A DNA stretch of 64,000 bases from the NCBI GenBank assembly GCA_964016885.1, contig OZ024740.1, positions 325,190,001 through 325,254,000 of the forward strand, given 5' to 3'. This DNA is from Eledone cirrhosa (lineage: Eukaryota). Position 1 is the first letter of the stretch, and each line of letters opens with the position of its first letter. Shown here piece by piece: positions 7,646 through 62,934 of this stretch. Below the pieces are notes generated by a model that was given only the letters and a program-made list of their open reading frames with translations, searched no databases and was not told the DNA's origin. A program made the position numbers and the translations under genes.

Positions 7646-8970
7646 ATGAAGTTCCCGGATAGCATTAAAGACTATATAGGTATACATCCATTCAGGAAGT
7701 AACCTGTATTAACTCGTATTTCAGAAAGAACAAAGTGGCCAGTTTTTACCGTCGTATAGTAATCTAAAATCTGAAGTAATTTACAGTTTCAATGAACAAC
7801 CACATCAAACAATCATCTCTCTCTCTCTCTCTCTCTCTCTCTCTTTTTTTTTTTTCTTTTTTTCTTCCTTTCTCCTTTCTCTATCCCTTTCTCTCACTCT
7901 CTCGCTCACACAGTATCTCTCTCTCTCTCTCTCTCTCTCTCTCTCTCTCTCTCTCTCTCTCTCTCTCTCTCTCTCTCTCTCTCTCTCTCTCTTTCTCTCT
8001 CTCTCTCTCTCTCTCTCTCTCTGTCTCTCTCTCTCTCTCTCTCTCTCTCTCTCCTCTTTGTAGCGCATTTTCTCTCCCAAGTTATACACCATATCTACAC
8101 CTCTGTCTTATAATTTACAATTACAGAAGACACATTATAGATAATGGAAGAAACTTCAAACATCTATAACGCTAATTATGTATATGAAGAGTTTCACACC
8201 ATCCAACTGTCGATTCGTCTTCAAGAAGCAGACGACGCTAACACCAACGCCAATGCCAGTACCACCACCCACCCCCAAAATCAATACCAACATCATCAAC
8301 ACAAACACTACCATTACCAACAATAATAACAATGTCAGCAAAAACACCAACAACAACATCATCACCAAAACCAAGACCAACATCAACAACACCAACAATA
8401 CCACCAATAGCAATATCACCAACTCCAACCAAAACTAAACACCAGATGAAAGAATTGTATGAGAAAGAAGGAGAAAAAGCGTGAAAGAGGGAAAGAGTGA
8501 AAATGGCGATAATCTAACGTACATACATTCTTATTATTGAACTAAACTATGTTTATCGGATCAGAAAATAAAATTATCTTATCAAATTAATAAGAATTTC
8601 ACAGTACAAAGCGATTGGAGAATTAGTTTCTGTATACAGTAGATTGGTTAAGTGAAAGACTTAAAAAGAAAGAGATTTGCCTCAAAAGTCTCACCGGTCA
8701 TAACACACGAATGATTAAACTACGTAGCTAGCAACCACATTGCAAGTATTAAATATTGCATTTATTTTCATTTAGCCAATAGAAATCTAGCAATATGTAT
8801 ATATATATATATATATATATATATATTTAAAGGTTAAACAAGGTTCAATGAATAAATCAATGAATAAAGTTTTACAATAGATTAGAAGCACTCCACAGTT
8901 ATTTGGTTTTCCGGAGTTATTAATATTAATTGAAAATATTAACAAATATAGACATTCGTGTGATCAAGTA

Positions 8971-9028
8971 TATTTTATTATACATATTTCAGAGGTACGT
9001 CAACAGTACGTCCTCATCAGATAAAATA
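8971..9028 (-). ncRNA. Minimal type I hammerhead ribozyme
   Basis: Minus strand reads TATTTTAT-CTGATGA-ggacgtactgttgacgtacctct-GAAA-tatgta-TA-ATAAAATA; perfect 8-bp stem I, weak stem II. Confidence 0.7.
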
Positions 9029-9234
9029 AGATGATGCTTGAAATAACTTCACTATGTTGATGGTTAAAATTCAGTCATGACTAGCAACTGGAACCCGATA
9101 CAACTCTGTCCCCCCGGCTGGCCACCGATTTACAAATTTTACGTGGTGGCGGGAGAATAGAAAATGAATCTTTTCATTCCCGTCAAAAAGAAATTTTAAC
9201 CATCAACATAGTCAAGGTATGTCAAACATCATCA

Positions 9235-9301
9235 TATTTTATCTGATGAGGACGTACTGTTGTAAATAGCTCAGTACCTCTGAAATATGTATAATAAAAT
9301 A
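9235..9301 (+). ncRNA. Minimal type I hammerhead ribozyme
   Basis: TATTTTAT-CTGATGA(9243)-ggacGTACTG..CAGTACctct-GAAA(9282)-tatgta-TA-ATAAAATA. Confidence 0.75.
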
Positions 9302-9385
9302 TACTTGATCACACGAATGTCTATATTTGTTAATATTTTGAATTAATATATATATATATATATATATATATATATATATATATAT

Positions 9386-9755
9386 AAAGAAGAAATTAAA
9401 AGATGGTTAAAAAAGTTCCATATATTTTATTATGCGCATTTCGAAAACAACATCATCCTGGGACAAAAGTTATGTTCTCATGAGATAAAATAAGGTAACT
9501 TGATATGTTGACTGGACACTTTCTTGTTCACAAGTGTTTTTAGGCCTCATATCATGTTACCTTATTTTATCTGATGAGAACACAACTTTTGTCCCAGGAT
9601 GATGTTTTCGAAATGCGCATAATTAAATATATGGAACTTTTTAAACCATCTTTTAATTTATTCTTTATTTATACTCCAGTTCTACCACTGTTGAGTGCTA
9701 CTTATCTGATATATGCATAGTTTTATTGTTCTACAATATTACTCACATCCTACAC
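9386..9755 (+). mobile_element. (TA)n-embedded fold-back element B with hammerhead
   Basis: Arms about 9386-9507 and 9548-9666; bulged hairpin at 9673-9699; (TA)n flanks. Confidence 0.8.
9563..9629 (+). ncRNA. Minimal type I hammerhead ribozyme
   Basis: TATTTTAT-CTGATGA(9571)-GAACA..TGTTTTC-GAAA(9610)-TGCGCA (palindrome)-TA-ATTAAATA; the antisense copy at 9423-9492 has a mutated core (CTCATGA). Confidence 0.8.
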
Positions 9756-9815
9756 ATATATATATATATATATATATATATATATATATATATATATATA
9801 TATATATATATATAT

Positions 9816-60171: not shown

Positions 60172-60800
60172 ATGGTGGCTGCCAACTCGTTTTCGAGTAC
60201 GGCCACTACTTTATATCCATGTAGGAGTACCCCTACCTACCGATGCGCTGAACGAATGCGACTTTAGTCCAGCCAGCGACTTGAAAACTCTGGTACAAAC
60301 ACTACACCTGTGACAATTATTGACACATAGTGCTAGGCCCATGGTACCATGTGACGACAAGTACAGAGAGATCTCCATATAAAGCAATGCCTGTGATATA
60401 TAAAGCAATGCCTGTGCCGTGAAGCTTTTATAGTGAGCAAAGGCACTGCACAAAGCCAGTCCCACTCTCTTAACGAAGATGATATTTACCAAAAAGAAGA
60501 ACAAGTCAACATCATTGGATACCATCAGGGTTGCAGGTGTTATATCAGAGTTTTCCTTCTCCTAGAATTCTGCCTTGACAAAGTTAAGGGGTCATCTCTC
60601 CCAGTGATTTTGGATGGCCATTGACTCTTAAGACCTCCTTTGCCCTTTGACAGGTTTTGCTTTTAGTCCTGCAGGATGTCCAAAGTCACCCTCCTCACCA
60701 AGAAACCTTGGTGGGGCTGCCAGTTTAGTCGCCAACGACCCGACCAAGAGACAGGTTGTACTGGGATACATGTTACCAGTAGCACCAACTGGTGACCTGA
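60172..60800 (-). mobile_element. Probable RTE-related element between (CATA)n tracts
   Basis: CAGAGTTTTCCTTCTCCTAGA..TGCCTTGACAAAG resembles the reversed RTE 5' region (from memory); (CATA)n on both sides. Confidence 0.45.
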
Positions 60801-61232
60801 CATACATACATACATACATACATACATACATACATACATACATACATACATACACACACAACGCACATATATCATATAATTGTTTCTACTTTTGGTACAA
60901 GGCCAGCAATTACCTGCGCATTACTGGTACTTTATTTCATCGACCTATAATATATATATTCATATATACATCACAATAATTATAAACACATGCATGAATA
61001 TACGTATATATATCTGTCCATATGTGTATATGTTTGTGTGTAGGTGCACCTCTAAATGTGCATCAATGCGTATCTGTGTCTTTGTGCCTGCGAGTATCTT
61101 TCTGTGTGTATCTGTGTCTCTATGTGTCTGTATCAGTATCTAGTGTCAGTATCTAGTGTTATTCTATCTATTAAAGACATTTTTAAAGGAAATTTGTAAA
61201 TCGAAACTTAGGATGCGGGGTATTATTTAACA

Positions 61233-61558
61233 CAGAGGTTCTCAAAGTGGGCGCTAAAGGGAGGGGTGTTCAGGAGGTTCAAGGGGAGGTTCAAGGGGGC
61301 ACTGGGGCCTAAGGGGTGGTAAGGGTTTATGATATAATAGTATATTAAATATCAAATGTACGCATATATATAGTAAAATAAAACATTTATTTATACATAG
61401 TATATACTATATTATTTATTATATATGAATTAATTTTATTTATTTTATATTATTTACAATCTGCATGTAGGCAGGTCTCTCTGGAAATAGGGTTGCGGGT
61501 GTATAAGGTATTACGTGGCTATGAGGGGACAATGGCCCAAAAAGTTTGAGAACCTCTG
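61233..61558. mobile_element. hAT (Charlie-like) MITE
   Basis: Perfect 14-bp TIRs CAGAGGTTCTCAAA / TTTGAGAACCTCTG; degenerate 8-bp TSD ATTTAACA/GTTTAACG. Confidence 0.85.
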
Positions 61559-62431
61559 GTTTAACGCTTATATTACCGAAATTTCATTTTCTCGTTCCTC
61601 CTTCTCCTTTTCTCTTTTTCACTGGCTCTCATTTGCTCTTTTTCTCTCATCTTCCTCTCTCACTTGCTCTTTTACTTTCATCTCTCTCCCTCTCTCTCTC
61701 TCTTTTTCTCTCTCTCTCTCTCTCTCTCTCTCTCTCTCTCTCTCTCTCTCTCTCTCTCTCTCTCTCACTCTCACTCTCACTCTCTCTCTCTCTATTTCTC
61801 TTTATCTGGCCCATACACTCTTTCTCCCTGTCTCCCTCTCTTTCTCTCTCTAGCTTTCTCTGGTTCTCTCACTCTCTCCCTTTCTCTCTCTTTCTCTCCC
61901 TATCTCTCTCTCTCTCTATCTCATTTTCTTTTCTCTCTCTCTCTGTTTCTCTCCCTCTTTCTCTCTAACATACACCCCCGCCTCTCTCTCATTCTCTTTT
62001 CTCTGACTTAAACGAAGCGTCATAAAACGTATGCTGACAGTTTAAAATGTTGGGGTATCATCTACCAAGAAACGCTAACGCACACATACACACATACACA
62101 TATATGTGTGTGTGTACATATAAATGCATATTCCTATACATATATATATATGTATGTATACATAGACATATATATATATATATATATATAGTGAGAGAGA
62201 GAGAGAGAGAGAGGGGGGGAGAGAGATATCTATGCATGTATACGCATACACATACACACAGATATAGGTTTATAAATGCATATATAAATGTATATGTATA
62301 ATGTATATATATACATACATACACACACATGCACACACATGCACACATACACCCACACACACACATACACACACATACACACACATATATATATATAAAT
62401 ATATATATATAAATATATATATATATATATA

Positions 62432-62735
62432 GGTCGGGTAAAATTCCCGAGATCCATGGACGAGTTCTCTCCAGCGGTCTCAGTCCTTCATCATTTTCGC
62501 CATGTCGTGCCCCTCCAGGAGACCAATGTCTGTCCTTAGGGTATGAACATATGTCATCTTTGGTCTCCCTCTTCCAGTGTGTTCGTGTAGGGGCTCCCAC
62601 AGGAGCACGGTGTGCAGTGTCAACTGGGAGTGTTGATGAGCATGTCCAGCTAACCTCAGTCGCCTCTATGTCACCTGCGGGCTGACTTTTAGGAGTCTCC
62701 CGTACAGGTTTGAGTTCTTCATCCTCGATGCATGC
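62432..62735 (-). mobile_element. RTE-type LINE 3' fragment within (TA)n
   Basis: Minus strand translates RRLRLAGHAHQH..VLLWEPLHEHTGRGRPKMTYVHTLRTDIG..DRWRELV. Confidence 0.75.
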
Positions 62736-62770
62736 TGATTGATGTATATATATATATATATATATATATA

Positions 62771-62934
62771 TTGAGCATATGTTAGTTGTTTACCGACACC
62801 TCAGTATGCAGACTGGAGCACTCGACGAAGTACGCAGGTTGGTTTGTTTACTCCGGAGTAATGTAAAATAATTAAATCAAATATGTAAAATTTGGCTTCG
62901 TTTATCAAATTTTACATATTTGACTTAATTATTT
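62771..62934 (-). mobile_element. Minimal (TA)n-embedded fold-back element N
   Basis: 29-bp arms at 62866-62894 and 62906-62934; bulged hairpin at 62817-62859 (minus). Confidence 0.75.

Follow-up and report, generated by a model that had tools for sequence, protein, structure and literature searches.

A window of 64,000 nucleotides from the Eledone cirrhosa genome (contig OZ024740.1, positions 325190001-325254000 of the 3.0 Gb assembly that was searched) holds eleven (TA)n-embedded elements, named copies A to K (Table 1), each with a bulged hairpin of the consensus RCTC-stem-loop-stem-TN-GAGY-RCT. All 11 hairpins are present at the coordinates and on the strands given in the original prediction. 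Most copies are fold-backs, typically in the order inverted arm, forward arm, hairpin, tail and (TA)n, and the hairpin concerned is the first one of a terminal repeat (HP1). Ten of the 11 are 5'-truncated ends of Penelope-like retrotransposons of the Hydra clade, to whose families they are tied either exactly or via a close subfamily, and the eleventh (copy C) is a non-coding passenger bearing a hammerhead. In full-length elements the motif is doubled, which went unnoticed in the prediction, and on the sequence evidence it is taken to be a real, apparently undescribed cis-acting element of a known element clade.

With a strict anchor pattern the window gave seven exact matches, where 1.53 were expected and 0 of 100 shuffles reached seven. 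A covariance model made from 21 hairpins chosen by hand, one of them the window copy at 38827 and several related to others, ranked 10 of the 11 copies above every other match in the window, the sole miss being the long-loop copy at 59568. A search of the genome, which had been proposed as a check, returned 49,419 pattern matches as opposed to 2,202 for a reversed control. The elements had also been called dissimilar, which holds for part of the set: the copies at 8887, 10613, 45183 and 46968 are 73-84% alike in 60-150 nt of flank, with the copy at 9673 weakly related to them; as four or five copies are relatives, the 11 represent about seven lineages. The distance from hairpin to TA tract, estimated at about 20-60 nt, was measured as 18-69 nt. 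An intact hammerhead core lies upstream of the hairpin, as predicted, at 59-69 nt in five of the 11 copies. Copy F is without a long inverted arm, and the 18-nt tail of copy C is truncated, the tail of its family being about 60 nt.

Table 1. Hairpin copies of the window and their parts (window positions; HP1 and HP2, first and second hairpin; ORF, open reading frame; names beginning with L are loci).
Copy	Feature	Position	Strand	Remarks
A	HP1, family 0	8887..8917	-	60-nt tail to (TA)n at 8798-8826; Hydra ORF of the family in L175/L177, HP2 in L004/L182/L191
A	Hammerhead core	8987..9020	-	69 nt 5' of HP1
A	Captured piece of copy C family, 110 nt	9079..9188	-	93% to 9983-10091; sense, centre of fold-back
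A	Inverted arm, tail-less	9189..9346	+	Stops 5 nt short of HP1, at (TA)n tract
B	Fold-back	9387..9755	+	Inverted arm; hammerhead core 9571-9613; HP1 9673-9699; 56-nt tail; family junction and ORF in L201/L204/L235/L250
C	Non-coding element	9817..10404	+	Long-stem hammerhead about 10186-10280; HP1 10350-10386, a variant that ends ACG; no ORF link
D	HP1, imperfect	10613..10640	-	Family 0 relative; fold-back 10640-10955; 59-nt tail; similar junction in L200
E	HP1	38827..38854	+	Fold-back 38501-38813; 54-nt tail; HP2 and ORF pieces in L242/L243
F	HP1	45183..45206	+	Hammerhead core 45080-45116; 69-nt tail; related junction in L247
G	HP1, outer pair G-C	46816..46839	+	Fold-back 46650-46811; 39-nt tail; related junctions in L020/L193
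H	HP1	46968..46990	-	Hammerhead core 47054-47094; inverted arm 47483-47667; 61-nt tail; junctions in L213/L226
I	HP1, family 1	59339..59365	-	45-nt tail; family has intact tandem full-length copies
J	HP1, loop about 60 nt	59568..59651	-	Fold-back 59656-59997; 46-nt tail; HP2 of the family with loop of about 100 nt; intact ORF of about 813 aa (L424/L459)
K	HP1	62817..62859	-	Fold-back 62866-62934; 45-nt tail; junction/ORF pieces in L227/L234/L240

Covariation of the stem, which had been claimed for its upper part as a whole, was assessed with the register fixed by the anchors alone, so that some mis-registered or chance matches are left in the sets. The first upper pair is formed in 18 of 22 flank clusters (C-G in 6, U-A in 11), as compared with 23 of 69 chance matches in viral contigs, and the third in 22 of 31 clusters (0 of 5000 shuffles as good). 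The second is likewise formed in 22 of 31, weakly (74 of 5000 shuffles), and for pairs 4 and 5 the 31 clusters give no excess over chance; the claim therefore stands for the outer pair and upper pairs 1-3 (pair 2 weakly) and falls for the pairs beyond. A covariance count on a further alignment, A2 (100% paired, 0 of 500 shuffles), was discounted in favour of these anchor-only tests because its rows were hand-picked. The viral loci served only as a chance control, none of the 80 pattern loci in that collection having a Hydra relative and a profile scan of it being empty as well. Among the genome-wide matches, the outer pair is G-C in 11,190 (1,208 in the control, 9.3x), G-U in 9,735 (3,117, 3.1x) and A-C in 4,657 (2,741, 1.7x), and in upper pairs 2-3 of the 31 clusters, which are partly dependent, there are 11 G-U and 2 A-C (two-sided P 0.02). 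Since G-U exceeds A-C, the sense strand is the strand that folds; folding energy did not separate sense from antisense (5 vs 6 of 11).

The hairpin had not been recognised as a described motif, and this impression has held. Rfam 15 covariance models gave no match over the hairpins in the window at E up to 1, nor over HP1 and HP2 in L232, L266, L424 and L252 at E up to 5. No description of it was found in the open full texts searched, a scope that leaves Repbase, Dfam and subscription papers outside.

The upstream walk from copy A crosses about 2 kb of non-coding sequence and then enters an ORF for a reverse transcriptase (RT) with a C-terminal GIY-YIG endonuclease (EN) (L175, L177, L170). An RT search of the genome gave 45,764 first-look candidates, and among 8,000 candidates scored there were 2,217 homologues; Pfam gave no match. 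Intact ORFs are found in the families of copy I (family 1; L232, 718 aa, protein P0001) and copy J (L459), both with a YRDD RT followed by VIY/IVY..YIG in a single frame; the predicted fold (pLDDT 88.5) has TERT 3du5 as its best structural match. In its published description, the Hydra clade is marked by DKT, CxCX5C, CxxC and CxH, absence of CCHH, RWK and units generally <3 kb (PMC8557442). Here DKG is replaced by DKT (SDKT in P0001, L181 and L459; [AS]DK[TS] in 40 of 40 rows of alignment A1). CxCX5C, CxxC and CxH are present in P0001, which by inspection lacks CCHH, and in 39, 40 and 39 of the A1 rows. Because the ORFs carry these motifs and no CCHH, the hairpin elements are assigned to the Hydra clade. 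The N-terminal motif is RWR in P0001 and most families here and RWH in L181; RWK occurs in 29 of the 40 A1 rows and RxRW[KR] in 38. The units, of 3,543 bp (family 1 tandem array L231), about 4.6 kb (L181) and about 6.9 kb (L460), are above the size typical of Hydra, the extra length being long non-coding 3' sequence.

As in other EN-bearing Penelope-like elements, a tandem array (L231), an inverted truncated copy and a one-sided tail are observed. A hammerhead core is also found upstream of HP1 in L233-L237, L241, L245 and L266, and none was detected in family 1 by the scan that found the others. A TA tract lies within 120 nt of 131 of 159 anchor matches. The predicted role of the hairpin, as a cis-acting signal to the RT/EN of a Penelope-like element, is supported by sequence, in that hairpin families run into intact RT ORFs with a C-terminal GIY-YIG and insertion ends keep a set position next to the hairpin. 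Neptune elements were considered as partners of the hairpin, a GIY-YIG family search having given mostly Neptune ORFs, and the link failed: the hairpin precedes the first long TA tract in 0 of 44 Neptune ORFs, many of which are interrupted by internal repeats, and the tail of the L061/L066 Neptune family is a different one. Naiad was rejected as a host since no N-terminal EN was seen. A further Penelope-like type with C-terminal GIY-YIG, outside the Hydra and Neptune families studied, is present in L115 and L121.

At the junctions of full-length elements the order is HP1, a tail of 37-71 nt, a second hairpin (HP2) and the start codon. HP1 and HP2 are spaced 67-100 nt, start to start, in most families; HP2 usually has a G-C outer pair and sits about 15-60 nt ahead of the first ATG. 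The twin-hairpin pattern has 2,077 matches (374 in the control), and a Hydra N-terminus follows the twin junction in 24 of 29. HP2 was predicted beforehand for the two families still unlinked at that point, those of copies J and C, and failed to appear in canonical form in the latter. In the family of copy J, its first bases were found 8 nt past the end of the pattern's tail in 327 matches and 0 in the control. A short-loop scan for the full hairpin gave 0 of 15 loci because its loop is about 100 nt long; HP2 as read in L424 has the same 3' triplet variant as HP1 of that family.

Insertion ends cluster at both hairpins. In the far-end set of 146 copies, 120 were assigned to a junction and 102 aligned through to the TA tract, and 101 of these 102 tailed copies end -8..0 from HP2, where the zeros are alignments crossing one mismatch, with the last true match about 3 nt earlier. 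In the near-end set of 74 inverted arms, 50 are TA-bounded, and 45 of these tail-less arms have their end at -8..+1 from HP1, a position shared by 11 of 13 flank clusters; tail length differs by family while the near-site position stays fixed. The original prediction had put the junctions marked by the hairpin 20-60 nt on its 3' side, and they are found instead immediately 5' of each hairpin. A TAT or ATA triplet was seen no more than about 7 nt from the hairpin in 19 of 21 near junctions and 20 of 21 far ones. In public assemblies, family 1 has TA ends 3 nt before HP2 in 290, 15 and 4 contigs (X1, X4 and X5) and 5 nt before HP1 in 62 and 7 contigs, these pile-ups coming from two organisms. 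As a separate observation, in run X1 the summed contig depth drops several hundred-fold across HP2 (L232:800-1400), as would be expected if most family 1 copies are very short 3' stubs.

The position of HP2 shortly ahead of the ATG would also suit a double-stranded promoter palindrome or an element of the 5' untranslated region, near which ends would fall merely through UA-rich flanks, and the 34-bp repeat of Penelope may belong to its promoter (PMC2377424). Such a role is most improbable: of the 186 TAT/ATA triplets in the spacers, 116 are further away than the last 8 nt, but that stretch takes 101 of 102 ends, and a double-stranded site is disfavoured by paired upper stems around loops ranging from 3 to about 100 nt.

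The two kinds of end are coupled. Fold-backs were sought in 895 kb, with arms selected on the sequence lying 5' of the hairpin. Of the 38 recovered, 21 could be classified at both ends, each being TA-bounded, and every one of these 21 combined a tailed with a tail-less end (for independent ends, P would be about 2e-7); the longer arm may be either of the two. This coupling bears on the proposal that the hairpins are sites of processing, termination or host nuclease action, whereby end-primed target-primed reverse transcription on two RNAs would make the two arms. Although the two classes of junction each keep a constant short spacing to a hairpin, and priming at RNA 3' ends is established for RTs of the LINE type (R2 abstract), two independent RNAs should often give like ends, and the Penelope-type protein PAc takes unprocessed RNA (PMC11167929), which makes this account improbable.

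The twin hairpins, their link to RT and GIY-YIG, the sense-strand bias, the fixed ends, the TA match and the coupling are direct observations, and the paired hairpins are probably protein-binding RNA marks that set two internal RT start sites, one for each broken strand of the target. In such a mechanism the element protein, probably as two copies, would bind each hairpin at its conserved lower stem, TN bulge and RCT, and its endonuclease would make breaks in the two strands of a (TA)n tract. The 3' ends so freed would then each pair with the UA-rich bases just 5' of one hairpin, that hairpin positioning the preceding UA patch at the RT active site, and would prime cDNA there. The cDNA begun at HP2 would copy the tail and HP1, the one begun at HP1 would copy neither, and the two would be joined head to head, sometimes after template switching. 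HP2 would never be copied into a 3' end, for which reason it would be visible only where the terminal repeat runs into the next unit; lying outside the copied part, it would have to be read on the donor molecule. Two starts of this kind would explain the one-sided tail and the inverted end of Penelope insertions. A broader claim, for and against which the scales are about level, is that of a twin RNA code shared across phyla, in which each hairpin would dock one half of a telomerase-like RT dimer and determine the point from which one broken target strand is extended, in a programmed and obligatory twin priming.

The same ends could also be marks of cutting, where the GIY-YIG domain would recognise the hairpins in single-stranded sense DNA or RNA and cleave a few bases 5' of them, the ends being joined to (TA)n. 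SsnA, a GIY-YIG nuclease, binds a hairpin in single-stranded DNA (ssDNA), ignores the loop, needs a base past the palindrome and cuts a few nt upstream (PMC11893778); the sense-strand bias fits this account equally well, the tail has been attributed by Craig et al. to EN-mediated resolution (PMC8557442), and the D. virilis EN needs the tail for plasmid recognition (as cited in PMC11167929). Cutting of this kind is nonetheless unlikely, though less so than processed RNA ends, as in the sole reconstituted Penelope-type reaction the tail boundaries are RT starts on uncut RNA (PMC11167929), the TA match at both junctions suits primer annealing, and sense ssDNA with HP2 would require a hypothetical intermediate longer than a unit. 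The stand-alone GIY-YIG gene that goes with the SRM of Ssn is not what is found here, where a retroelement ORF joins the EN to an RT. The resemblance to Ssn lies in the GIY-YIG, the hairpin with a dispensable loop, the critical base just 3' of the stem and the action some bases upstream, and the difference in that Ssn is a bacterial ssDNA nuclease without RT, with another sequence and no part in retrotransposition (PMC11893778).

Several points weigh against two hairpin-set RT starts. The G-U bias identifies the sense strand and does not separate RNA from ssDNA. Isolated hairpins are predicted to be weak, mostly -1 to -10 kcal/mol, and in context both hairpins have a predicted pairing probability >0.5 in just 3 of 28 junction sequences. 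The upper stem of HP2 is often of one or two pairs, with no covariation past the invariant first pair, and in the C family a canonical HP2 was sought and gave two matches only, both in flank. The hairpin precedes the first long TA tract in only 3 of 38 Hydra EN ends, of which about 12 have the near site as their end, which was expected, and the remainder are uninformative owing to interruptions. Two of the six new Hydra consensi, Hydra-1_Amil and Hydra-1_Obim, are without a clear hairpin (PMC8557442), and the starts of PAc are reported to be non-homologous to the cut DNA (PMC11167929), as opposed to the TA match of the Hydra elements here. Lastly, a Neptune family of the same genome (L061/L066) has the same two-site TA-match layout without the motif, and the hairpin is therefore not required by all Penelope-like elements; that family may hide a different signal. 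Its tail is about 66 nt, with a TATA match at both junctions and an ATG about 20 nt past the far site (L061, minus strand 1880-6229; L066). Mutual pairing of the two AGYRCT hexamers, present in some folds, was rejected as a general feature because L020, L193 and L266, with the C-A form in both hairpins, cannot form it.

In twin priming of L1 elements, both target strands prime cDNA and an inverted 5' part results, the second priming being occasional and at variable internal sites. Here, in contrast to the variable second site of L1, there are two fixed sites with a shared motif and overlapping arms. A close known system is that of Poseidon, in which PAc, a predicted dimer, cuts and extends both strands and initiates RT internally, at the two boundaries of the tail (PMC11167929). 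As compared by genomic ends alone, the Hydra elements here resemble the PAc footprint in the two tail-bounding starts, the cutting and extension of both strands, as proposed for them, and a signal 3' of the hammerhead at the junction of repeat and ORF. The signal of PAc is, however, a single AC-rich stem-loop inside the ORF, with no repeated motif reported in the text available, whereas in the Hydra elements each site has a TA match before it and, after it, a bulged hairpin that is repeated and covaries. The text supplements of the PAc paper held no match for the motif, the supplementary figures, which possibly bear on its stem-loop, being outside this comparison (PMC11167929).

The published Hydra clade shares with the present elements RT with C-terminal GIY-YIG, DKT, CxCX5C, CxxC and CxH, (TA)n targets, a hammerhead core in the terminal repeat (in part of the families here) and an inverted 5' copy with a one-sided tail, and the motif can be found in four of its six new consensi (PMC8557442). 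It differs in that only the hammerhead is described, the word 'hairpin' occurring 0 times in the text available, and in that units here are 3.5-6.9 kb, with tails of 37-76 nt and RWR or RWH often replacing RWK (PMC8557442). By eye, the motif is present in the consensi of the coral Hydra-2_Amil and the sea-cucumber Hydra-2_Ajap, twice in tandem ahead of the ATG in the sea-cucumber Hydra-1_Ajap, and as a near-match in the copepod Hydra-1_Crog (PMC8557442). The available Naiad and Chlamys consensi gave no hairpin context in the first seven places of each of four 7-mers (28 of 54), a check blind to motifs split across lines. An unrelated metagenome contig (L266), 37% identical in protein, carries a hammerhead, HP1, a 37-nt tail ending ATAT, HP2 and an ATG, and its relatives L267 and L268, which share one flank, stop 2 nt before HP2; the remaining five of eight loci are fragments without a clear hairpin.

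How Penelope-like elements integrate, with an inverted end and a one-sided tail, has been an open question for decades, and the lone in vitro study gave two start sites without a defined signal; the motif described here sits just behind both sites. It is conserved from corals to the Eledone cirrhosa genome, where the intact ORFs of L232 and L459 make the mechanism testable, and it provides a simple diagnostic for Hydra elements, which Pfam misses despite tens of thousands of copies in this genome. If the broader claim of a twin RNA code is true, a portable signal of 20-30 nt would suffice to turn any RNA into a substrate that is inserted into TA repeats at both ends.

The hairpin is also a candidate signal for mobilising hammerhead-bearing passengers such as copy C. 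The copy C family is non-coding, with 2,972 candidates, has a long-stem hammerhead that folds in prediction, and showed no linked ORF in 18 extended loci; one 840-bp tandem is known (L452), whose junction holds a degenerate second hairpin. The copy C piece within fold-back A likely arose through a template switch, and it suggests that copy C RNA is used by the same enzyme as the copy A element. Short non-coding hammerhead units related to terminal repeats are also described for non-LTR retrozymes, non-autonomous Penelope derivatives marked by non-coding tandem units with a type I hammerhead (PMC7229834; bioRxiv 10.64898/2026.07.22.740005), which the 840-bp tandem and a 257-bp tandem unit in L208 resemble; the available texts on retrozymes name no cis signal, whereas the passengers here carry the hairpin. 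The L208 unit (L208:1483-2000) is a non-autonomous family 1 derivative, non-coding, that keeps both hairpins in the order HP2, short leader, HP1 and tail. L452 also holds, on the minus strand, a Hydra family in which HP1, 378 nt past the EN, has a single-base bulge rather than TN.

Other features were noted in the window and in related loci. A weak Rfam HH9 hammerhead match (23 bits, below threshold) at 46335-46408 (+) has no hairpin after it and is probably another Penelope-type or retrozyme family, and fold-back H holds a SINE-like repeat plus other sequence between its arms, at about 47180-47480. Near family 0 copies, on the strand opposite the element, Helitron-like Rep/helicase frames were labelled by inspection (L114:3404-6564, L115:8532-9803). 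The window also contains two non-LTR retrotransposons on the plus strand, each with a zinc-knuckle ORF1 and an endonuclease-RT ORF2, of which the one at 14100-17467 is broken and the one at 18446-23419 is nearly whole and frameshifted.

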